Source: a virus
Virus record (IMG/VR): IMGVR_UViG_3300036886_000043
Location: 1-64,000 of that record
Reading direction: 5' to 3' (one strand)
DNA: 64,000 nucleotides
Below the pieces are notes generated by a model. The model saw nothing but the letters and a program-made list of their open reading frames with translations. It had not been told where the DNA came from and searched no databases. The position numbers and the translations under genes are program-made. Each line of letters starts with the position of its first letter. Within the stretch, counting starts at the first letter, position 1. This document shows, one piece after another, positions 7,448 through 49,688 of this stretch.

Positions 7448-7675
7448 ATGACACTTTCTGCAATCGAGTACCTCTACCGCCCGATGTATCGCTCCGCGCA
7501 CAATTCAGCCTTTCCGCCTGATGTGACCTGGGATTACGTCGAAGCCCCTGCCTCCGATCCGATGATTGCAGTTCGGCGCGGCCTGCCACTGTCCCGTCAA
7601 CCGTTCGGCGTGATCGCCTTGAATCGCCGGCTAACGTCTCAAGAGCGCACAGAATACCAGATGGAGATCGTATGA
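7448..7675 (+). CDS. Possible DarA C-terminal-like (defence-against-restriction-related) small protein
   Basis: Y.YRP...FPP...FGVIALNRRLTSQERTEYQM resembles the DarA_C pattern as recalled. Confidence 0.4.
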   Translation: MTLSAIEYLYRPMYRSAHNSAFPPDVTWDYVEAPASDPMIAVRRGLPLSRQPFGVIALNRRLTSQERTEYQMEIV

Positions 7676-18140: not shown

Positions 18141-18573
18141 CGCCTTCAAACTTCAAGCATCGGAAGTAGAACGAATCCGAGAGATGGTCCCAACCGTAGA
18201 CGAGTTGAGGATCATCGACTTAATGAGGGATTACCGCTCTATACGCAAGAACTATTTTGGGAACAGCATCCCTCCAACTGAAGAGATTCTAATTCGGTTT
18301 CTCCCGCGCAATGAGATGGGCAGACTCAGCGGATCTAAGGATCGGGATACCGATGGATATTGCTCATGCGGGAAACATCATGGAACTCCGGTCCCGCAAA
18401 CATTATCCTTGGTAGACGATCTTGATGTTAACCAGACAAGGATCACTCTCCTTCATGAAATGGCGCACATGAAGGTAAACACGAAGTTCGGCCGCGCCAT
18501 GAAACATGGTAAGAATTTCAAAAAAGAACTGCGGCGGCTTATGGCGGCTGGCGCATTTGATGATTGGTTGTAA
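18127..18573 (+). CDS. SprT-like zinc metalloprotease
   Basis: YFGN...TLLHEMAH...HGKNFK. Confidence 0.8.
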   Translation: MKKNSAFKLQASEVERIREMVPTVDELRIIDLMRDYRSIRKNYFGNSIPPTEEILIRFLPRNEMGRLSGSKDRDTDGYCSCGKHHGTPVPQTLSLVDDLDVNQTRITLLHEMAHMKVNTKFGRAMKHGKNFKKELRRLMAAGAFDDWL

Positions 18574-18575
18574 TC

Positions 18576-20792
18576 ATGTCGATCATTCGAGCCAATAAGT
18601 ACCTCGGCGAGATCATTGAGATCCTCGACATGCACCGGCAGAAGTATCGGGCCGGGGACATCGGGGACGACGAAGCGAGAGCCTCGTTATCATCTGGCGA
18701 CAACGAGTGGATTGACGGCGAGATGTACCATAGCCTGACCGACACGCGATATTTTCTATCCAACTACTACGCCATCCGAACCGAAGATAAAGGCTTCCAA
18801 GGTCTCTACCCATTCTTTGACAGCCAAGAGATTCTCTATGAGGAACTGCGGAAGCTGGAAAAGAAGAATGGCCGTGTACGGGCAATGGTTGCCAAGGCCC
18901 GACGCATGGGGTACACGACTTACATGGTTGGGGAATTCCTTCACAAGACAGTTATACGCTACAAGCACACCGACGCAATCATTGTGTCCCAGGACGAAAA
19001 GGGCGCGAAATACAACATGGGAATGTACGAATCGGCTTTCGACTTCCTGCCGTGGTGGATGAAGCCGAGAGTCAACCTGCATCAGACTGGAGCCCTCTAT
19101 AACTTCGATGAACCGGATGAGAACTTACGAGCACGGCGCCCAGGATTGAAGAACTGGGTGTATGCCGACAACGCTAATCGACCTTCGGGCGTTGGCCGCG
19201 GTCAAGGATTCCGCTGCGGGATGTTGGATGAGTTGGCTTTCTGGAAGAATTCCTCTCAGCTTTCAAAGTCACTGTTGAGGACGTTTGTCGCCCGAGACGG
19301 TTTCTACGTGATGGGATCGACAGGAAACGGTCGTAACGATGCGTGGCACAACTTGTGGAGACGTGCCGAGGCGGGATCAATCGACTGGAATCCGATCTTC
19401 ATTCCGTTCTATCGTAGGCCGAAAACCTACTCGCTTCCGATTCCGAAGGGAGAGGTCTTTGAACTGAGTCCCGAAGAGAAAGAAATGGTGGAGCAGGTTA
19501 AGCAAAAAGAGAACTTCACCATCTCAAAGGAAACGATCAACTGGATGCGGAAAACCAAAGAAGAATTCGTTGCAACGGACGGCGACGACATGCTCTTCTC
19601 TCAGGAATATCCGACCAACGCAGAAGATAGTTTCCAGAACGCGATTATTTCCGCGATCCCGAGAGGCATCATAAATCGCTACAGCAAGCGGACTGTACAG
19701 CCGGTATGGATTGGGGAAATTAGTTTCGACTTCGTAAAGTGGCTTCCCCATCTTTACATGAAGGAACTGAAGCCGGGAGAAGAAGCGCTCTATCCCGAAA
19801 TAGAAAATCGGCTGCATCTTTGGGAAAAGCCGCAACCGGGAGAGAGATATTGCGTCGGTGTAGACGTAGCTCTTGGCCAGAAAGGCGGAGACTATTCTTC
19901 ATGCACGGTGATGAAAATCAGCGCACGCGCACAATTAGACGCGCAGGTAGCGCAGTGGCATGGATACATGGACCCGCACAATCTGACGGACATCGTGCTT
20001 GCGTTAGGCTGGTACTACAACGAAGCTCTGATAGCCGTCGAAGTAAACTCGTTTGGTATGGCGACGAATACGCGGCTGATGCGCGACTACGAGTATGAGC
20101 AGATTTATCGGTTCAAGCGCATGGACCGCCTAAAGCATTTCATGACAGACATCGTTGGATTCTGGACTGATTACAAGTCGAAGAGGACGTTAATCTCCTT
20201 CTTCTCAAAGATGATGCTCGACGACCAAGTGCTCATTCGAGACAAGTACCTGATCGACGAATTGAGGGATTTCACCGAAGATGGAGCGGAAGGTGAAGGG
20301 GCACACGATGACCTGGTGATGAGCGCCATGATTGCTCTCTACTGCGGGCATGAAGGTGAATTTGAAGAGAGACGCCAGAGGCCGGCAGAGGCCGCAAAGG
20401 ACAAAAACAATTACATCGTCTACAAGATGCAGGTGATGGATGGGATGCAGATTCCAGTGAAACTATTTCAGTCTGCATCTCCATTCGAGGCTGAAAAGTT
20501 CGCAAAGAAAAAAATCGGCTCTTACATCATCAACGAGCATGGAGCGATGGCGGATTTGGTTCTCAAGCGAAAGAATGAAAAGGGAGAGTTGGAGTCGGTC
20601 ACAAAGCGCGTGCCAGCGGATTTTCAAAACACTGCGTACAGCCCAATTCACGATAGGCCGGGGACGCGGCAACGAATGTTTGATGAGGGGATTCCTGCCG
20701 AGATGATCGATTCAGAGAGCGCAGCGGAGTTCGATGCTCGGCAGGAAGACGAGGAATTAGTGAGCGATTCAGATTCATGGAAGTGGTCCTGA
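18576..20792 (+). CDS. terL: Terminase large subunit
   Basis: KARRMGYTT Walker A variant, LDELAFW Walker B, STGNG, FSQEYP, GVDVALG and HDDLVMS RNase H-like nuclease. Confidence 0.92.
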   Translation: MSIIRANKYLGEIIEILDMHRQKYRAGDIGDDEARASLSSGDNEWIDGEMYHSLTDTRYFLSNYYAIRTEDKGFQGLYPFFDSQEILYEELRKLEKKNGRVRAMVAKARRMGYTTYMVGEFLHKTVIRYKHTDAIIVSQDEKGAKYNMGMYESAFDFLPWWMKPRVNLHQTGALYNFDEPDENLRARRPGLKNWVYADNANRPSGVGRGQGFRCGMLDELAFWKNSSQLSKSLLRTFVARDGFYVMGSTGNGRNDAWHNLWRRAEAGSIDWNPIFIPFYRRPKTYSLPIPKGEVFELSPEEKEMVEQVKQKENFTISKETINWMRKTKEEFVATDGDDMLFSQEYPTNAEDSFQNAIISAIPRGIINRYSKRTVQPVWIGEISFDFVKWLPHLYMKELKPGEEALYPEIENRLHLWEKPQPGERYCVGVDVALGQKGGDYSSCTVMKISARAQLDAQVAQWHGYMDPHNLTDIVLALGWYYNEALIAVEVNSFGMATNTRLMRDYEYEQIYRFKRMDRLKHFMTDIVGFWTDYKSKRTLISFFSKMMLDDQVLIRDKYLIDELRDFTEDGAEGEGAHDDLVMSAMIALYCGHEGEFEERRQRPAEAAKDKNNYIVYKMQVMDGMQIPVKLFQSASPFEAEKFAKKKIGSYIINEHGAMADLVLKRKNEKGELESVTKRVPADFQNTAYSPIHDRPGTRQRMFDEGIPAEMIDSESAAEFDARQEDEELVSDSDSWKWS

Positions 20793-21479: not shown

Positions 21480-23345
21480 ATGGCAGACTTTGAAGCTCCA
21501 ATCCCGAAGACCCCGGAAGTAGTAGACCAGTACCTCGTGGACTACTACACAAAGATGGGGTCGTTCCTTGACGGCTGCTACGAGGAAGGTGTAGCCCGCC
21601 AAAAGACCACACCTGAACTGAAGGCAATGGACGAGGCTATCGACTACCTAGCTGGAATCCAGTGGCGAGAGAAACTCCCGAGCTACAGGCCGAAGCCGGT
21701 GTCGAATGAGGTTCTATCGAACTTTTGGGAGACGATAGGATTGCTCACCGACACGAGGCCCATCTTCCACATCTCAGAGGTCGGGATGCCAGGGAACTAC
21801 TCGAAAACCTCCAAGATTCTAAACGCGATGGTCAAGGGTTGGGCTCGGAGAGACAAATTCAACCAGACGCTTGCATTCTGGACGATGTTCGGAATGTTCA
21901 CGACTTCTCCGGCTGTCCTCTACTGGAATCGGTTTGCCAGAGGGACAAGCGGCGATGCGGCCGATGCCGATATTTCTATGAAGCATCTGAGCCCGAAGGC
22001 CCTGATGCGGCTTGGGCCTACCAGACCTCACGACATCGAAGAAGACGAGATGGTGATCTACCGTCATCGGGAGACCCTTGACTGGATCAAACGAGCCTAC
22101 CCGAACATGGGAAAGCATGTTCGTCCAGACGAGGGGATAAGCCAGTACGGTGTCGAGCAGCAGGCTTCGCCACTCGTGATGCCACAATTATTCGAGCAGT
22201 TGGGTGCAGTTCAGAGACATCTCATAGGTGGCTCTGAGCAGTCAAGGGTGAGGAGTAGGTATCCAGAGGCGGAAGTCGTAGAGTTTTGGATGATCGATGA
22301 CAGCACGAACGACAGCCAAAAGACAATTTGGATGGGACCGGGGGATGGAATAGGTCCAAATAGCGCACCTTGGGGATACTGGGTCAAGCCCGGAGAAAGG
22401 CTCTATCCGCGGGGCCGGCTGGTGATCCGCTCGAACAAGGTCACGCTCTACGATGAGCCAAACCCCTACTACCACCGCAAGAGGCCGTTTGTTTTGATGG
22501 GGCTCCACTCGGTTCCGTGGCAACAGTACGCCATGAACGTGTTGAAGCCGTGGATGGATACGAACGACGTTCTCAACCAGATCATGGCTGGACTCTTGCA
22601 GGCCACGAAGAGAGCGTTGAGCCCTGCTTTAATGGCGCCGAAGTCTGCTATTCACCCGGATGCTTTGAAAGCCATTGATGCCGGCAAACCGAACCTAAAA
22701 ATCTCCTACAACTCAAACGCGGTTACAGGGCCGACCTGGCAGACACCGCCGAACATCGGCAACTACCCGATCCCGATCTACCAGGAACTCAAGCGTTCAA
22801 TCAAGGAGAACTCGGGGACCGAAGCGGTCAACCAGGCTCTTGCGAAAAAGCAAGTTCCGGGCGGCGACACACTCGACAAGATTCAGTTCTCGAAGACTAC
22901 TCCGATCCGCTTCAAGGCAGGAAACGTTGAAACAGGAGTCAATGAAATCGGAGAACTATGGACTGGGACAGCACTCCAATTCTACGACGCTGCAAGGCGC
23001 ATGGAGAGCCTTGGGTTGGATGGATTGGTGAAAGAGGACATCGACGACAGACCGGGGAGCCTGATCCCTGAAGGAGTAAACTCGGAATCGTATGTTCGCA
23101 AGTTCGGCTTTGAATGTGAACAAGGATCTTTGTTCAACTTCCAGAGACAGGACCGGATACAAATTGCGGCCGGACTGAGAAAGAACAGAGACTTGAGCCG
23201 TAAGCAGTTCTTCAAAATCGCAATTCCTGATTGGAACGTGGATCAGAAAGAGAACGACGACGAACTCATGGAAGAGGCAAAGCAGGCTGCGATGGCGATG
23301 GCGGCATCTGGCGTGAAGCCGGGAGCGCATCATGGCAGCAAATGA
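21480..23345 (+). CDS. Portal protein (P22/podovirus-like)
   Basis: 621 aa after TerL; Y.G.QW, VVEFW, PNPY....PF patterns. Confidence 0.8.
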   Translation: MADFEAPIPKTPEVVDQYLVDYYTKMGSFLDGCYEEGVARQKTTPELKAMDEAIDYLAGIQWREKLPSYRPKPVSNEVLSNFWETIGLLTDTRPIFHISEVGMPGNYSKTSKILNAMVKGWARRDKFNQTLAFWTMFGMFTTSPAVLYWNRFARGTSGDAADADISMKHLSPKALMRLGPTRPHDIEEDEMVIYRHRETLDWIKRAYPNMGKHVRPDEGISQYGVEQQASPLVMPQLFEQLGAVQRHLIGGSEQSRVRSRYPEAEVVEFWMIDDSTNDSQKTIWMGPGDGIGPNSAPWGYWVKPGERLYPRGRLVIRSNKVTLYDEPNPYYHRKRPFVLMGLHSVPWQQYAMNVLKPWMDTNDVLNQIMAGLLQATKRALSPALMAPKSAIHPDALKAIDAGKPNLKISYNSNAVTGPTWQTPPNIGNYPIPIYQELKRSIKENSGTEAVNQALAKKQVPGGDTLDKIQFSKTTPIRFKAGNVETGVNEIGELWTGTALQFYDAARRMESLGLDGLVKEDIDDRPGSLIPEGVNSESYVRKFGFECEQGSLFNFQRQDRIQIAAGLRKNRDLSRKQFFKIAIPDWNVDQKENDDELMEEAKQAAMAMAASGVKPGAHHGSK

Positions 23346-45209: not shown

Positions 45210-45293
45210 GCGGGATTGGCGAAACGGCAGCCGCGCCCGATTTAAGATCGGGTGTCTTAGGACGTGGGAGTTCAAGTCTCCCATCCCGCACCA
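45210..45293 (+). tRNA. tRNA-Leu(TAA)
   Basis: Cloverleaf, long variable arm, encoded CCA. Confidence 0.9.
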
Positions 45294-45294
45294 T

Positions 45295-45371
45295 GTATCG
45301 GAAGGTAAAGTTTTGGAACCAGTGGTCCGCAAAACCACTTTTAGCCGGTGGGACTCCGGCCCGGTACTCCA
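45295..45371 (+). tRNA. tRNA-Cys(GCA), atypical T-loop
   Basis: GTGGT-CCGCAAA-ACCAC; U73; CCA. Confidence 0.8.
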
Positions 45372-45383
45372 AAGTTTAGTAGT

Positions 45384-45462
45384 GCTCGCGTAGCCCAATT
45401 TGGCAGGAGGCACTTCATTCAAAACGAAGACAGTGCTGGTTCAAATCCAGCCGCGAGTACCA
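45384..45462 (+). tRNA. tRNA-Leu(CAA), short variable region
   Basis: Loop TTCAAAA; TTCAAAT T-loop; CCA. Confidence 0.85.
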
Positions 45463-45470
45463 AAATATGT

Positions 45471-45549
45471 GCCCCGTTAGCCCAATTGGCAGGAGGCGTC
45501 TGACTTAGGATCAGAACAGTGATGAGTTCGAATCTCTCACGGGGTACCA
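45471..45549 (+). tRNA. tRNA-Leu(TAG), short variable region
   Basis: TCTGA-CTTAGGA-TCAGA; CCA. Confidence 0.85.
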
Positions 45550-45593
45550 AAATTTAGATTGCAACGGGTACCAATCTACTGTAAAATATTGGT

Positions 45594-46193
45594 ATGAATG
45601 GTGATTCGAGTATTTGCAATGGATGTGGTTTAAGTGAGCCAGAAGTGAGATTTCGATTGCGGAAGGCGAACGGGAAAACTTACAGAAAACACTTGTGTAC
45701 AAAATGTGATGATGAATATCAAAAGAAGTACACTAAACCTCAAGGCGTAAAAGATAGGAATAGAAAATCGTATCTGAAAAGAAAGGAGAGAAGAGCACGG
45801 GGAGAAATAGTCGAGATTTTCCTTCTTGAGGACTGTCGAAGAATTGACAGAAAAAAAGGTATCAAATCCGATTTAGACTCTGAATATATTGCGGAGATAA
45901 TAAAGGATGGATGCGCGTATTGCGGAGATATAGAATCACGCATTGGGCTTGATCGGATAGATAATTCACTGGGCCACATGAAGGGAAATGTTAACGCCTG
46001 TTGTATGAGATGTAATCTTATTCGTAGGGATATGCCATACGAAGCATGGCTGATTGTAGCGCCCACGATGAAGATTGCGAGAGAATCAAAAGCGTTTGGG
46101 AATTGGAATGTGCTTTTTGGAAACAAGAAGAAAACGGAGCGCGGGCCGGACGATAAGGCAACGGGTTGCTACCCCGCACAGCCGCAAGGCTGA
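45594..46193 (+). CDS. HNH-type endonuclease inside tRNA array
   Basis: CAYCG...GLDRIDNSLGH...NVNACC..CN; AT-rich; own promoter TTGCAA-17-TAAAAT at 45559-45587. Confidence 0.8.
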   Translation: MNGDSSICNGCGLSEPEVRFRLRKANGKTYRKHLCTKCDDEYQKKYTKPQGVKDRNRKSYLKRKERRARGEIVEIFLLEDCRRIDRKKGIKSDLDSEYIAEIIKDGCAYCGDIESRIGLDRIDNSLGHMKGNVNACCMRCNLIRRDMPYEAWLIVAPTMKIARESKAFGNWNVLFGNKKKTERGPDDKATGCYPAQPQG

Positions 46194-46221
46194 CTGAGTT
46201 TGACTCTCAGGCGCTCCGCCA
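46136..46221 (+). tRNA. tRNA-Ser(GCT)
   Basis: Long variable arm, G73, CCA. Confidence 0.85.
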
Positions 46222-46225
46222 GTTC

Positions 46226-46310
46226 GGAAGGTACCGCTGAAAGGTCGGCAAACGGTCCTGAAAACCGTGGCTCCTTCGGGATGGGCGTTCGATTCGTCTA
46301 CCTTCCGCCA
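46226..46310 (+). tRNA. tRNA-Ser(TGA)
   Basis: ACGGT-CCTGAAA-ACCGT; long variable arm; G73. Confidence 0.85.
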
Positions 46311-46315
46311 AGTTT

Positions 46316-46402
46316 GGGAGTGATGCTCTGTAGGGAGAGCAGCAGGCCGTAACCCTGCCGTCACTTGTGGCATAGGGGGTTCGATTCCCTCCACTCCCAC
46401 CA
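46316..46402 (+). tRNA. tRNA-Tyr(GTA)
   Basis: GCAGG-CCGTAAC-CCTGC; long variable arm. Confidence 0.85.
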
Positions 46403-46405
46403 TAC

Positions 46406-46434
46406 TTGTCAACACGGAAGAGTAGTGGTATACT
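46406..46434 (+). promoter_or_regulatory. Internal promoter for fMet/Asp/Glu tRNAs, no leader peptide or terminator
   Basis: TTGTCA-17-TATACT with TGn extension. Confidence 0.7.
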
Positions 46435-46439
46435 GAAAT

Positions 46440-46514
46440 CGCGGGTTGGTAGCGCAGCGTCATACGTCAGGCTCATACCCTGAAGATCCGGTGCAAATCC
46501 GGTACCCGCAACCA
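46440..46514 (+). tRNA. tRNA-Met(CAT), initiator-like
   Basis: C1:A72 mismatch; TCAGG-CTCATAC-CCTGA. Confidence 0.8.
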
Positions 46515-46515
46515 A

Positions 46516-46591
46516 GGTCACGTCGTCTAACTGGAAGGATACTTCCCTGTCTAGGAAGCTGGCGCGGGTTCGATTCCCGTCGTGATCGCCA
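46516..46591 (+). tRNA. tRNA-Asp(GTC)
   Basis: CTTCC-CTGTCTA-GGAAG; G73. Confidence 0.9.
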
Positions 46592-46597
46592 AGTTTA

Positions 46598-46676
46598 GCC
46601 GATGCACTCTGTACTGGATTCGGAGCACTCCCCTTCAAGGAGTTGGATGCGAGTTCGATTCTCGTCGTCGGCGCCA
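46598..46676 (+). tRNA. tRNA-Glu(TTC)
   Basis: ACTCC-CCTTCAA-GGAGT. Confidence 0.85.
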
Positions 46677-46684
46677 AGTTTTAC

Positions 46685-46761
46685 GGGGTCACCGTCTAAT
46701 TGGTCTGGACGCCAGATTCTCAATCTGGAAACTGTGAGTTCGATCCTCACTGGCCCTACCA
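46685..46761 (+). tRNA. tRNA-Glu(CTC)
   Basis: CCAGA-TTCTCAA-TCTGG. Confidence 0.9.
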
Positions 46762-46770
46762 GAAAATGAT

Positions 46771-46799
46771 TTGACAGAAATTGCGAACGGCGGTACAGT
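46771..46799 (+). promoter_or_regulatory. Promoter of tRNA block 2
   Basis: TTGACA-17-TACAGT. Confidence 0.8.
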
Positions 46800-46809
46800 A
46801 GAAAACGAG

Positions 46810-46878
46810 ATGAAAAACCGAGTCAATCACGGATTTACACCAGCGACGGCGCAACCGACGCAGGGTAATCCTATGTAG
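46810..46878 (+). CDS. Attenuator leader peptide 2 MKNRVNHGFTPATAQPTQGNPM
   Basis: Contains codons for all 12 downstream tRNAs; followed by antiterminator/terminator. Confidence 0.85.
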   Translation: MKNRVNHGFTPATAQPTQGNPM

Positions 46879-46903
46879 CGGCTCGTGGAGTTTGAAGCAA
46901 AGC

Positions 46904-46935
46904 GCCCACCGAGCCAATCAGCCGGTGGGTTTTTT
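46904..46935 (+). terminator. Attenuator terminator 2
   Basis: GCCCACCG/CGGTGGGT + T-run; alternative pairing 46880-46888 with 46906-46915. Confidence 0.85.
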
Positions 46936-46943
46936 GTTGATGT

Positions 46944-47019
46944 TCCAGCGTAGCAAAAAGGTAATGCGCCGCACTGTTAATGCGGAAATGTGCAGGTTCG
47001 AGTCCTGCCGCTGGAGCCA
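46944..47019 (+). tRNA. tRNA-Asn(GTT)
   Basis: CCGCA-CTGTTAA-TGCGG. Confidence 0.92.
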
Positions 47020-47028
47020 GTTTGAAGT

Positions 47029-47103
47029 TGCCCGTTCGTTCATGTGGCAGGACGGCTGACTCTGGATCAGCGGAGCGAGGTTCAAGTCCTCGACGGGCAG
47101 CCA
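47029..47103 (+). tRNA. tRNA-Gln(CTG)
   Basis: GCTGA-CTCTGGA-TCAGC. Confidence 0.92.
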
Positions 47104-47111
47104 AGTTTTAC

Positions 47112-47187
47112 AGGGAGATGGCCGAGCGGCTTAGGCGACAGCCTTTGGAACTGTCTCAGGTAGGTTCGACTCCTACTCTCCCTGCCA
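47112..47187 (+). tRNA. tRNA-Gln(TTG)
   Basis: Loop CTTTGGA; G73. Confidence 0.85.
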
Positions 47188-47188
47188 T

Positions 47189-47264
47189 GCGGACGTAGCT
47201 CAATTGGTAGAGCACAGCGTTGCCAATGCTGAGGTTGCCGGATCGTTGCCGGTCGTTCGCTCCA
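47189..47264 (+). tRNA. tRNA-Gly(GCC)
   Basis: CAGCG-TTGCCAA-TGCTG; U73; atypical T-loop. Confidence 0.88.
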
Positions 47265-47349
47265 AATTTTGGAGGTTGACATGCCGCACAGGTATCATTT
47301 CAATGCCGATCTCCGAGAAGTGTACAGAAGGCTGGCGGGACAATTTCGA

Positions 47350-47424
47350 GCACCGTTAGTTGAGTCGGCACAACACGACACTCGTAACGTCGAGGCTCCG
47401 GTTCGAGGCCGGGACGGTGCTCCA
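47350..47424 (+). tRNA. tRNA-Thr(CGT)
   Basis: Loop CTCGTAA; CCA. Confidence 0.82.
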
Positions 47425-47441
47425 GAATTGGAAGGTGAGTG

Positions 47442-47978
47442 ATGAATTTGATGCGGAAGCCGGTATTGCAGTTGAATGCAAGCTACGAGCCGCTTCGCAT
47501 CATCGCGGCAAGAAGGGCATTGACGCTCATAACCAAGGGCGTAGCCGTGGTGGAAGTGCCAACCAGCACAGTAGTCTATCCTGGCATCTACTTGCCCTCA
47601 GTGATTCGGTTGCGGACTTACCGGCATGTGCCTATTAGGATGCAGGTGATGAGCCGCAAGAACATTCTCCTTCGGGATGGCGGCCGCTGCATGTATTGCG
47701 GACAGAGGTCAAACGAATTGACGCTTGACCATGTGATTCCGCGTTCCCGTGGCGGATTGAATACGTGGGACAATCTTGTGGCTTGCTGCAAACGCGACAA
47801 TCACAAGAAGAACGACAGGACTCCAGAGGAAGCGGGAATGAACTTGATTCACAGGCCGCTTCCGCAAACGATCCACACGCCGCGGTTTGTTCTACGGTCT
47901 ATGGGTTTGGAAGTAAATGAGTGGAGCCCGTACTTGTGGGCCGACTCCGAAGGCGACAAGAAGTATGCGTTTAACTGA
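47442..47978 (+). CDS. HNH endonuclease (McrA/COG1403-like)
   Basis: VLQLNASYEP, PSVIRL, RD...CMYCG...TLDHVIPRSRGG..TWDNLVACC...N. Confidence 0.92.
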   Translation: MNLMRKPVLQLNASYEPLRIIAARRALTLITKGVAVVEVPTSTVVYPGIYLPSVIRLRTYRHVPIRMQVMSRKNILLRDGGRCMYCGQRSNELTLDHVIPRSRGGLNTWDNLVACCKRDNHKKNDRTPEEAGMNLIHRPLPQTIHTPRFVLRSMGLEVNEWSPYLWADSEGDKKYAFN

Positions 47979-48050
47979 GCCGGGTGAACATCGAATGTTG
48001 CGGGCGCTTGTATCGCTTGCTAGTGGGTTCGACTCCCACATCCGGCCCCA
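47979..48050 (+). tRNA. tRNA-Thr(TGT)
   Basis: GGGCG-CTTGTAT-CGCTT; short D-arm. Confidence 0.75.
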
Positions 48051-48060
48051 ACAAGTTCAT

Positions 48061-48135
48061 GGGGAATATCGTTCAGCGATAGGACGCTAAGTTGTGGCCT
48101 TAGTCACCGCAGTTTGATTCTGCGTATTCCCCCCA
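48061..48135 (+). tRNA. tRNA-His(GTG)
   Basis: G-1:C73; CTAAG-TTGTGGC-CTTAG. Confidence 0.88.
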
Positions 48136-48148
48136 AGTTTTAAGTAGT

Positions 48149-48223
48149 GGGCGTGTGGTGCTAATGGGAACACATCCGGCCTGCACCCGGAAGTTGAGAG
48201 TTCGATTCTCTCCATGTCCACCA
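48149..48223 (+). tRNA. tRNA-Ala(TGC)
   Basis: G3:U70; TCCGG-CCTGCAC-CCGGA. Confidence 0.9.
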
Positions 48224-48229
48224 AGTTTT

Positions 48230-48305
48230 GCCGACTTAGCTGATGAGGTCATAGCGGTCGCCTGAAGAGCGATAGAAGCCCGCTCGATACGGGCAGTCGG
48301 CACCA
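48230..48305 (+). tRNA. tRNA-Phe(GAA)
   Basis: GTCGC-CTGAAGA-GCGAT. Confidence 0.88.
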
Positions 48306-48306
48306 T

Positions 48307-48384
48307 CGGTGTGTAGCGTAGTCTGCTTAACGCGCTCCGTTCGGGACGGAGAGATCGCAGGTCGAAATCCTGCCACGCCGACCA
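48307..48384 (+). tRNA. tRNA-Pro(CGG)
   Basis: CTCCG-TTCGGGA-CGGAG. Confidence 0.9.
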
Positions 48385-48390
48385 GTTTAC

Positions 48391-48464
48391 CGGGGTGTAG
48401 TGTAAAGGAAACATCCGTGGCCTGGGACCACGTGTTGGGCTTTCGAGATGCCCCACCCCGACCA
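48391..48464 (+). tRNA. tRNA-Pro(TGG)
   Basis: CGTGG-CCTGGGA-CCACG. Confidence 0.82.
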
Positions 48465-48470
48465 ATTTAC

Positions 48471-48545
48471 GGCCCGTTCGTTCAATGGACAGGACTTCGG
48501 ATTACGAATCCGACAATCAGAGTTCGACTCTCTGGCGGGCTACCA
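48471..48545 (+). tRNA. tRNA-Arg(ACG)
   Basis: TCGGA-TTACGAA-TCCGA. Confidence 0.92.
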
Positions 48546-48546
48546 C

Positions 48547-48575
48547 TTGCAAGAAAAGAAAAGTTGATGTACAGT
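48547..48575 (+). promoter_or_regulatory. Promoter of tRNA block 3
   Basis: TTGCAA-17-TACAGT; ATG 7 nt after the -10. Confidence 0.75.
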
Positions 48576-48582
48576 GGAATTC

Positions 48583-48651
48583 ATGCAGATCAGGACCAAA
48601 CACGGAATAACCAGAATGACCAAGCGGGTCATTTGGGGGATCGTGTGTTGA
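48583..48651 (+). CDS. Attenuator leader peptide 3 MQIRTKHGITRMTKRVIWGIVC
   Basis: Contains codons for all 12 downstream tRNAs; stop codon overlaps antiterminator strand. Confidence 0.85.
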   Translation: MQIRTKHGITRMTKRVIWGIVC

Positions 48652-48677
48652 GGGTCTGAGCATTTTGGTACGCACAG

Positions 48678-48702
48678 ACCTTCGCTCAGGCGAGGGTTTT
48701 TT
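48678..48702 (+). terminator. Attenuator terminator 3
   Basis: ACCTTCGC-TCAG-GCGAGGGT + T-run; alternative pairing 48650-48658 with 48675-48683. Confidence 0.85.
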
Positions 48703-48718
48703 ATTGCTCTTTGAAAAT

Positions 48719-48793
48719 AGGGGAGTGCTGGCGGCACAGCGGTTGGTCTCCAAAACCAACGTCACGGCGGTTCGAGTCCGCTCTCCCCTGCCA
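48719..48793 (+). tRNA. tRNA-Trp(CCA)
   Basis: TTGGT-CTCCAAA-ACCAA; G73. Confidence 0.85.
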
Positions 48794-48798
48794 TTTTT

Positions 48799-48867
48799 GG
48801 CACGTACCCAAGGCGGGAAGCGATCCTCATAAGATCGTAAACTGGTTCGAGTCCAGGCGTGCTACCA
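48799..48867 (+). tRNA. tRNA-Met(CAT) elongator (or Ile2), compact D-arm
   Basis: CGATC-CTCATAA-GATCG. Confidence 0.72.
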
Positions 48868-48872
48868 GTTTT

Positions 48873-48966
48873 GGGCGATAGCACCGGCCGTGCGGCGGAG
48901 TCTTATAAACTCTGGAGAGCGCCAGATTAGCGCAACGGGAAGGATCGACACCTTCATCGCCTACCA
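48873..48966 (+). tRNA. tRNA-Ile(TAT) with long variable arm
   Basis: GGAGT-CTTATAA-ACTCT; extra GCGC/GCGC stem; CCA. Confidence 0.72.
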
Positions 48967-48969
48967 TGT

Positions 48970-49044
48970 GGGTCGCAGATGTTTTTGGCGGCATACCCGG
49001 CTCTTACCCGGAATGGCGGGGTTCGACTCCCCGGCGACCCACCA
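48970..49044 (+). tRNA. tRNA-Lys(CTT)
   Basis: Loop CTCTTAC. Confidence 0.85.
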
Positions 49045-49053
49045 TCTGTTTTC

Positions 49054-49127
49054 GGACTGCGAGTGTGATGGTGCATAACGCCCTTTTAAGGCGTTTGGAT
49101 AGAGTTCGATTCTCTAGCGGTCCACCA
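49054..49127 (+). tRNA. tRNA-Lys(TTT)
   Basis: ACGCC-CTTTTAA-GGCGT. Confidence 0.85.
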
Positions 49128-49128
49128 T

Positions 49129-49203
49129 GGCCCTATAGCTCAAGGGGATAGAGTGCGGTCTTCTAAGCCGTCGATCACCGTTCGACTCGGTGTAGGGCTC
49201 CCA
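49129..49203 (+). tRNA. tRNA-Arg(TCT)
   Basis: GCGGT-CTTCTAA-GCCGT. Confidence 0.9.
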
Positions 49204-49208
49204 GTTTT

Positions 49209-49285
49209 GCCGCTGTATCTCTCCGGTTTCCTAAACCGGCAAGAGTAGTTGGATGACGCCGGTTCGACTCCGGCCAGCGGCCCCA
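49209..49285 (+). tRNA. Non-canonical tRNA-Arg(CCT) lacking a 5' D-arm
   Basis: 7-bp acceptor, 7-nt linker, CCGGT-TTCCTAA-ACCGG, 18-nt extra region, canonical T-arm, CCA. Confidence 0.7.
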
Positions 49286-49290
49286 GGTTT

Positions 49291-49368
49291 GCTGCCGTAT
49301 TCGGTTCTGGTTCCGAACCAGAGGGCCGTAGATGGAGAAGGCAGGTTCGAGTCCTGTCGGCAGCGCCA
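49291..49368 (+). tRNA. Non-canonical tRNA-Arg(CCG) lacking a 5' D-arm
   Basis: 7-bp acceptor, 8-nt linker, TCTGG-TTCCGAA-CCAGA, 18-nt extra region, canonical T-arm, G73, CCA. Confidence 0.7.
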
Positions 49369-49373
49369 GTTTA

Positions 49374-49449
49374 GCCGGGTTCGCCCAAAGGCTTAGGGCC
49401 GATGGTCTACACCCATCTGATAGGGGTTCGAGTCCTCTACCCGGCACCA
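49374..49449 (+). tRNA. tRNA-Val(TAC)
   Basis: GATGG-TCTACAC-CCATC. Confidence 0.88.
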
Positions 49450-49454
49450 AGATT

Positions 49455-49528
49455 GTCGATGTAGCTCAGTGGTAGAGCACCGCAATGGTAATGCGGCGAC
49501 GAGGGTCCGATTCCCTCCTTCGGCTCCA
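49455..49528 (+). tRNA. tRNA-Thr(GGT)
   Basis: CCGCA-ATGGTAA-TGCGG. Confidence 0.88.
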
Positions 49529-49532
49529 TTTT

Positions 49533-49607
49533 GCCGATGTAGCTCAATGGCAGAGCATTCGCTTGATAAGCGAAAGGTCAGTGGATCAGTACCACTCATC
49601 GGCACCA
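49533..49607 (+). tRNA. tRNA-Ile(GAT)
   Basis: TTCGC-TTGATAA-GCGAA; atypical T-loop. Confidence 0.88.
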
Positions 49608-49613
49608 AGTTGA

Positions 49614-49688
49614 GCGGGATTAGCCAAGTGGAAAGGCAATGGGCTTCCAACCCATTATGCGTCGGTTCAACCCCGACATCCCGCTCCA
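49614..49688 (+). tRNA. tRNA-Gly(TCC)
   Basis: ATGGG-CTTCCAA-CCCAT; U73. Confidence 0.92.

Follow-up and report, generated by a model that had tools for sequence, protein, structure and literature searches.

Arginine tRNA genes of phage tRNA arrays with a probable non-cloverleaf layout, the D-loop following the anticodon arm

The genome of an uncultured virus, IMG/VR record IMGVR_UViG_3300036886_000043, carries a tRNA array in which two tandem genes are very probably working arginine tRNAs, with anticodons CCU and CCG, but, as far as can be read from their sequences, not cloverleaves. In both, the entire D-loop and one of the two D-stem strands would come after the anticodon arm. The genome is 97,230 bp long, has direct terminal repeats and is rated complete; "the window" below denotes its first 64 kb (positions 1 to 64,000), in which both genes lie. 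The reading that best accounts for them, and one that we consider likely, is a tRNA-Arg whose segments, in standard tRNA numbering, run in the order 1-9, 22-45, 10-21 and 48-76. This layout, here called rewired, recurs in at least 90 distinct sequences from viral contigs and from the tRNA arrays of bacterial genomes.

Layout of the two genes

Gene 1, the rewired tRNA-Arg(CCU), occupies positions 49209..49285 of the window (77 nt) and gene 2, the rewired tRNA-Arg(CCG), positions 49291..49368 (78 nt), both on the + strand and both with an encoded CCA. An earlier, sequence-only reading of the window had placed two tandem tRNA-Arg-like elements there and had described 7-bp acceptors, canonical anticodon and T-arms, CCA ends, a gap of 7-8 nt at the D-arm and an extra region of 18 nt; coordinates and parts alike were borne out. 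Each gene has a 7-bp acceptor stem with a discriminator base and 3' CCA, a 5-bp anticodon arm whose 7-nt loop has U33 and a purine at 37, and a 5-bp T-arm whose loop fits UUCRANY. Between acceptor stem and anticodon arm neither gene contains a D-arm hairpin (positions 10-25). Just 7-8 nt stand in its place, and a stretch of 18 nt is found 3' of the anticodon arm.

Read from the 5' end, gene 1 consists of the acceptor strand, UAU, CUC(U), the anticodon arm with loop UUCCUAA, CA(A), GAG, UAGUUGGA, UGAC, the T-arm with loop UUCGACU, the second acceptor strand, C73 and CCA. Gene 2 follows the same plan, with UAUU, CGG(U), loop UUCCGAA, GG(G), CCG, UAGAUGGA and GAAG in the corresponding places and UUCGAGU as its T-loop. 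The short linker ahead of each anticodon arm can pair with nucleotides behind it to form a helix that encloses the arm. In gene 1 this helix joins CUC at 49219..49221 (the equivalent of D-stem positions 23-25) to GAG at 49243..49245 (positions 10-12), columns that covary in the family described below, and the U at 49222 provides a fourth pair in this phage. In gene 2 it joins CGG at 49302..49304 to CCG at 49326..49328, and the U at 49305 gives an additional U-G pair. The anticodons lie inside these helices, CCT (reading AGG) at 49230..49232 and CCG (reading CGG) at 49313..49315. Directly after each helix comes what appears to be a relocated D-loop: at 49246..49257 in gene 1, with U13, A14 G15 U U G18 G19 A20, then U G A21 and C48, and at 49329..49340 in gene 2, with U13, A14 G15 A U G18 G19 A20, then G A A21 and G48. 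Both genes thus conform to the plan of the family, namely a 3-bp enclosing helix, U-A-R-N-Y-G-G-A, 2 nt, A, 1 nt and the T-stem, and the relocated loop resembles the D-loops of ordinary arginine tRNAs in the same arrays, for example AGACGGA.

Minimum-free-energy folds lengthen the anticodon stem of both genes by four pairs across a 2-nt bulge. These are the CUCU/AGAG and CGGU/GCCG pairings of the sequence-only reading, and their 3-bp core is backed by covariation in the family. A further pairing claimed for gene 2, TTC/GAA, did not hold up, the partner columns being neither conserved nor complementary in relatives. A hairpin inside the extra region, present in the minimum-free-energy fold of gene 1, was also considered and rejected; beyond the 15/48 pair it is paired in 33-47% of family members. 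Nor do the family counts reveal a conserved hairpin of the extra region's own, such as would mark a class II tRNA.

A family with covarying helices

Relatives were sought with a pattern made of the D-loop-like motif and the T-loop, the anticodon being left free, and the same layout was found in unrelated viral contigs. Thirteen members were taken into a first alignment, selected solely by perfect acceptor, anticodon and T stems. RNAalifold predicted the helix enclosing the anticodon arm de novo from these 13 sequences; the helix had played no part in choosing them, yet every one of the 13 (100%) can form it, and two of its three pairs covary. A covariance model built for the family, R1, gives its members 49.7-94.6 bits and ordinary tRNAs at most 41 bits, so that the window genes, at 92.0 and 85.2 bits, stand well above the latter. 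With a broader pattern, at least 63 R1 matches at E <= 1e-9 were obtained among 67 new loci listed from viral contigs, and about 20 of 53 stretches from a genome collection proved to be family members. The covariance-model search for homologs that the sequence-only reading had proposed as a check on itself has therefore yielded them in abundance.

Across the 90 distinct sequences the enclosing helix is 98.5% paired, and all four Watson-Crick types occur at two of its three pairs. Pair 24-11 is GC in 39 members, UA in 28, AU in 13 and CG in 10; at pair 25-10 the counts are GC 43, CG 36, UA 5 and AU 2. The acceptor helix is 99.5% paired. Taken over all four helices, 97.7% of cells are paired, with compensatory changes, a level reached by 0 of 500 shuffles. 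This comparative evidence supports the core of the rearranged fold that had been proposed, with a D-loop element 3' of the anticodon arm and a 5' linker pairing back. These counts also bear on the notion that the two genes are decayed tRNA pseudogenes or chance tRNA-like spacer sequence in the array. The lack of a gene-finder call and RF00005 scores near the threshold would suit such an origin, but 90 members retaining four helices through compensatory changes, and an identical layout in phages of Proteobacteria and Actinobacteria, make it scarcely tenable.

Single nucleotides point the same way. U8 and A9, which no pattern required, are present in 90 of 90 sequences. G18G19, A20 and A21 are likewise invariant, having been required by the pattern; the GG and A20 that the sequence-only reading had singled out as retained are accordingly found throughout the family with that proviso. 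The equivalents of positions 15 and 48, that is, the purine after A14 and the nucleotide just before the T-stem, covary in the manner of a Levitt pair: A-U in 71 members, G-C in 9, G-G in 9 and G-U in 1 (Fisher p ~5e-18), with position 48 left free in the pattern. The pair even flips within orthologous lineages, the CCU gene having G-C in the window and in the related contig L008 and A-U in L032 and L196.

These core features weigh on a second explanation, in which the genes would be D-armless tRNAs of the mitochondrial type. The D-arm would then be lost, the variable stretch would be a flexible connector, the GG motif and the short pairing would have no D-arm role, and the molecule would be floppy. 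Functional D-armless tRNAs are indeed known in animal mitochondria (PMC7609411), and the 7-8 nt at the D-arm place are what such a tRNA would have. Those mitochondrial tRNAs, however, are without the elements seen here (PMC7609411): U8 and A9 are invariant, as is the canonical T-loop (a requirement of the pattern), and the 15/48 covariation together with the covarying helix beside the anticodon stem points to a rigid core of canonical type. We regard a D-armless form as quite unlikely.

Two size classes make up the family, one of 77-79 nt, to which the window genes belong, and one of 82 nt, in which 8 nt are inserted after the anticodon stem. The 82-nt form has matches in 279 cultured-phage records, including E. 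coli phage 121Q and Klebsiella phage Roth37 (about 63 bits each with R1) and many rV5-like, Felixounavirus, Salmonella, Caulobacter, Streptomyces and Campylobacter phage records, most of which leave the gene unannotated. The short form occurs in mycobacteriophage Wildcat (anticodon CCU; 67.3 bits with R1) and in Streptomyces phages. The members from the genome collection all lie in dense tRNA arrays (13-24 tRNAs per 8 kb) of Bradyrhizobium isolates and various metagenome-assembled genomes. No match to the rewired form was found in 5,426 complete E. coli genomes; the coliphage members do not reside in them as prophages. In blastn searches of cultured phages, the two genes of the window gave no match, and the hits of a CCU member from contig L004 were confined to the T-arm; the window's genes are therefore without a close cultured relative, whereas other subfamilies have cultured relatives. 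A general pattern that dispensed with the T-loop returned, among the matches listed, only chance hits, none scoring with R1, and is uninformative on non-arginine members.

Two further loci, L186 (+ strand; from the 5' acceptor strand at about 7900 to a CCA at about 7975) and L326 (- strand; in reverse-complement coordinates about 7600-7675), hold tRNA-like elements without an anticodon, in which a 7-bp acceptor, a GUAAKCGGA loop, a T-arm and CCA are accompanied by a 6-bp hairpin with a 3-4-nt loop in place of the anticodon arm.

Arginine anticodons and exchange of genes between arrays

Though the search pattern left the anticodon free, 89 of the 90 members have arginine anticodons: UCU in 60, CCU in 17, CCG in 5, ACG in 4 and UCG in 3. 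The exception is a single weak member with CUU. CCA is encoded in 63 of the 90. The CUU (Lys) member, at L212:11000-11080 on the - strand, is the weakest of all (49.7 bits) and has a longer GG loop; the same contig also has three rewired arginine genes, with CCU, UCU and UCG, and the CUU gene may represent an identity switch out of arginine.

Six related arrays, that of the window included, share the gene order Trp-Met-Ile-Lys-Lys-Arg(UCU)-Arg(CCU)-Arg(CCG)-Val-Thr-Ile-Gly, and each arginine slot within them is filled by one gene, ordinary or rewired, never both. In the window the UCU slot holds an ordinary cloverleaf tRNA-Arg(UCU) (49129..49203, + strand), and rewired genes hold the other two; the UCU slot of L008, L032 and L196 is filled by a rewired gene. 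All three slots are rewired in L008 and L032; L196 has rewired UCU and CCU genes and an ordinary CCG gene; and in L036 and L031 only the CCG slot is rewired. Ordinary and rewired genes of the same slot have unrelated acceptor stems, so that whole genes have been exchanged; the idea that ordinary genes were converted in situ into rewired ones was rejected on this ground. Two HNH endonuclease open reading frames (ORFs) inside the tRNA array, at 45594-46193 and 47439-47978, fit with gene-by-gene replacement in the arginine slots. Likewise, in the arrays of bacterial genomes the anticodon of a rewired gene is never duplicated by an ordinary gene at the same locus.

Among 92 long ORFs of the phage, CGG makes up 23.4% of arginine codons and AGG 17.3%, together 41%, and no further tRNA with either anticodon, CCU or CCG, is encoded anywhere in the 97-kb genome. 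An ordinary tRNA-Arg(ACG) lies in the same array, at 48471-48545. The genes had been read as functional and not decaying, and this fits the arginine-only anticodons, the slot-for-slot swaps with normal genes and the heavy use of CGG and AGG.

Function outside translation is another way to read them, as decoys or sponges for tRNA-cleaving defence nucleases or tRNA-binding proteins, or as processing signals of the array transcript. Phage tRNA arrays are tied to tRNA-targeting defences, such as Septu, which cleaves tRNA-Tyr (PMC13096335), and an odd fold could alter which proteins recognize the RNA. A decoy, however, would need neither the exact set of arginine anticodons nor slot-for-slot swaps with ordinary arginine tRNAs of the same anticodon, and no more would it need A20, a CCA encoded in so many members or a match to heavy codon use. 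Roles of this kind are unlikely.

Ahead of the block of the array that holds both genes is a leader ORF of 22 codons (MQIRTKHGITRMTKRVIWGIVC; 48583..48651, + strand), followed by a GC hairpin and T-run just before tRNA-Trp, the whole spanning 48583-48707. It is context for the tRNAs and no part of them. AGG, AGA and CGG occur in it once each, which confirms an earlier remark that this leader (its "Leader 3") contains AGG and CGG, and the block downstream has, in its 12 tRNAs, readers for 17 of the 21 codons. The leader is kept in L196 (617-691) and L032 (about 1524-1610), where AGA and ATA are retained at differing positions. Its arrangement suggests an attenuator that senses translation and controls a tRNA operon.

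Gene finders and annotation

ARAGORN makes no call in 49204-49373 (170 nt) despite calling 28 tRNAs around it, and the Rfam tRNA model RF00005 reported neither gene in a gathering run over the 64-kb window. The suspicion that genes of this form may evade tRNA finders was therefore justified for ARAGORN and for Rfam at its default settings, while the companion idea that the fold might evade nucleases is speculative. When RF00005 is run with lax filters on a short stretch, the genes do score 33.8 and 30.4 bits against a gathering score of 29, but the alignment works only by deleting 15 D-arm positions of the model and inserting 15 nt in the variable region.

Genes of cultured phages have fared no better. 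In 121Q the rewired gene (gene 124; L335:1495-1576) is annotated as tRNA-Leu(taa), the conserved CGUUAAU insert having been read as the anticodon loop; in Roth37 it is annotated tRNA-OTHER, and in Wildcat (L336:1201-1276) it sits unannotated between two called tRNAs. Because such genes are overlooked or misnamed, many phages would have been assigned wrong tRNA sets and wrong estimates of codon supply; in the window phage, ARAGORN would be blind to the decoders of the 41% of arginine codons that are CGG or AGG.

Genome setting and other features of the array

The genome has a GC content of 54%, and its large terminase (18564-20792) and portal (21480-23345) genes lie within the window. The terminase shares no more than 27% identity with its counterpart in any cultured phage. 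The tRNA array (45210..49688, + strand) holds every tRNA gene of the phage: 28 ARAGORN genes, the two rewired arginine genes and several uncalled tRNA-like genes. In the ORFs neighboring the array, searches with PHROGs and Pfam found only HNH endonucleases, a glycosyltransferase and an epimerase (PHROGs) and no Pfam match at all; among these neighbors there was no gene for tRNA repair, ArgRS (arginyl-tRNA synthetase) or tRNA modification.

Several other genes of the array depart from the textbook form. A 94-nt tRNA with anticodon UAU (Ile, reading AUA) at 48873-48966 carries an additional 4-bp hairpin in its variable region and looks class II-like; tRNA-Ile(tat) genes of comparable length (92-95 nt) are called by ARAGORN in L008, L316, L328 and L299. 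An uncalled tRNA-like gene at 47979-48050 has the loop CUUGUAU (Thr UGU), a 7-bp anticodon stem and a 2-nt variable region, and a single nucleotide separates its acceptor from a 5-bp D-stem with a 3-nt loop. ARAGORN also missed a Ser(UGA)-like gene with a long variable arm at 46226-46306 (34 bits with the Rfam tRNA-Sec model), a CAT tRNA at 46441-46514 (22.8 bits with RF00005) and a short tRNA-like element with a GCA loop and an odd T-loop at 45310-45371.

A proposed fold for the rewired tRNA

In the proposed fold the chain would run through positions 1-9, then 22-26 with the anticodon arm and 44-45, then 10-21 and finally 48-76. The short 5' linker would supply the 22-25 strand, and the 10-13 strand, arriving after the anticodon arm, would pair back onto it. 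The resulting equivalent of the D-stem may then stack on the anticodon stem as one nested helix, interrupted by a small internal loop made of the equivalents of 26 and 44-45. The stack would have ten layers, as in a normal tRNA: the 5 bp of the anticodon stem, one for the internal loop, the 3 bp of the enclosing helix and one for the U-Y mismatch. After the 10-13 strand a normal D-loop (A14, R15, G18 G19, A20, A21) would follow, then a single nucleotide (48) and the T-stem.

The classical core base triples of tRNA include 9-[12-23], 45-[10-25] and 21-[8-14], the last beside the 15-48 pair. The three new joins, 9 to 22, 45 to 10 and 21 to 48, would link nucleotides that are already neighbors in these triples. 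Since the joins connect existing neighbors, the L-shape and the elbow between D-loop and T-loop can be kept, and so can A20 and C35, which are identity elements for ArgRS. An RNA folded in this way could be processed, charged by the host ArgRS and used to decode AGG and CGG in a phage that relies heavily on those codons.

Several points weigh against this reading. The invariance of G12, U13, A14, G18G19, A20, A21 and the T-loop is in part a matter of ascertainment, because the search patterns fixed G12, U13, A14, R15, G18G19, A20 and A21 along with the T-loop. The alignment of the 90 members (A2) was fitted to the model structure, so the pair counts lean towards that structure. Single-sequence folding z-scores, at -2.4 and -1.9, are modest. 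Gene 2 has G15/G48, which is not a Levitt pair of the Watson-Crick type, and one additional linker nucleotide; gene 1 has C73 as its discriminator, and E. coli ArgRS has a mild preference for A or G at position 73. The three-dimensional argument rests on core triples taken from textbook tRNA structure. Finally, the figures for CGG and AGG describe codon use in the phage, not the supply of host tRNA for these codons.

On balance, we somewhat favor the broader view that the family represents a widespread, translationally active non-cloverleaf tRNA, undescribed so far, in which segments 10-21 and 22-45 have been exchanged and the L-shaped core is rebuilt from the same contacts, and which arose once, spread through phage tRNA arrays of many bacterial phyla and diversified within arginine anticodons only. 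The arm order of the cloverleaf is treated as universal for cytosolic-type tRNAs, and a conserved rewired family would change that view. If the reading is right, the tRNA fold tolerates rewiring, and nature offers a test case for the features read by ArgRS, RNase P, EF-Tu, modification enzymes and the ribosome, as well as a new scaffold for engineered or orthogonal tRNAs. Some members belong to phages that can be grown on laboratory E. coli or on Mycolicibacterium smegmatis, which makes the question directly testable.

Full-text literature searches found no published description of the rewired layout, and a 2020 review of non-canonical tRNAs has nothing like it (PMC7609411). A candidate RNA that overlaps Aragorn tRNA-Arg calls, DNAVirus_2961 (PMC10690425), might be an instance of it.

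Comparison with known tRNA types

The closest likeness is to the ordinary class I tRNA-Arg (RF00005). The rewired form shares with it the 7-bp acceptor, the 5-bp anticodon arm with U33 and A37, the 5-bp T-arm with UUCRANY, the nucleotides U8, A9, A14, R15, G18G19, A20 and A21, the 15-48 pair, the arginine anticodons, the encoded CCA and the same slot in syntenic arrays. In contrast to the ordinary tRNA it lacks a D hairpin on the 5' side of the anticodon arm; its 10-13 strand and D-loop come later. Its D-stem equivalent encloses the anticodon arm and consists of 3 bp and a U-Y mismatch instead of 4 bp, and the spacing from D-loop to T-stem is 1 nt instead of 4-5.

The permuted tRNA genes of Cyanidioschyzon merolae and its relatives are circular permutations that are restored to a cloverleaf via a circular intermediate. 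Their segment order, like that of the rewired genes, departs from the textbook. The rewired genes, however, have their ends in the usual place, with the 5' and 3' strands of the acceptor in normal order at the ends of the gene, and it is two internal segments that are exchanged; on this layout the mature RNA itself must be non-cloverleaf.

D-armless mitochondrial tRNAs, such as the nematode mt-tRNA-Ser(UCU) (PMC7609411), also have a short connector at the place of the D-arm and are also missed by standard finders. They are, however, without the elbow formed by G18G19 and the T-loop and have reduced T-arms, whereas the rewired family retains the elbow and the core nucleotides in a new order: in place of elbow loss and a reduced core it has G18G19, A14, A21, a canonical T-loop and covarying 15/48 positions.

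Allo-tRNAs and tRNA-Sec, with acceptor branches of 8/4 or 9/3/4 (PMC5389517), offer a precedent of another kind, being natural and conserved departures from the 7/5 branch that were mined from metagenomes and some of which occur in phages. In these, helix lengths are changed and the order of the arms is kept (PMC5389517); in the rewired family helix lengths are canonical and it is the connectivity that has changed.
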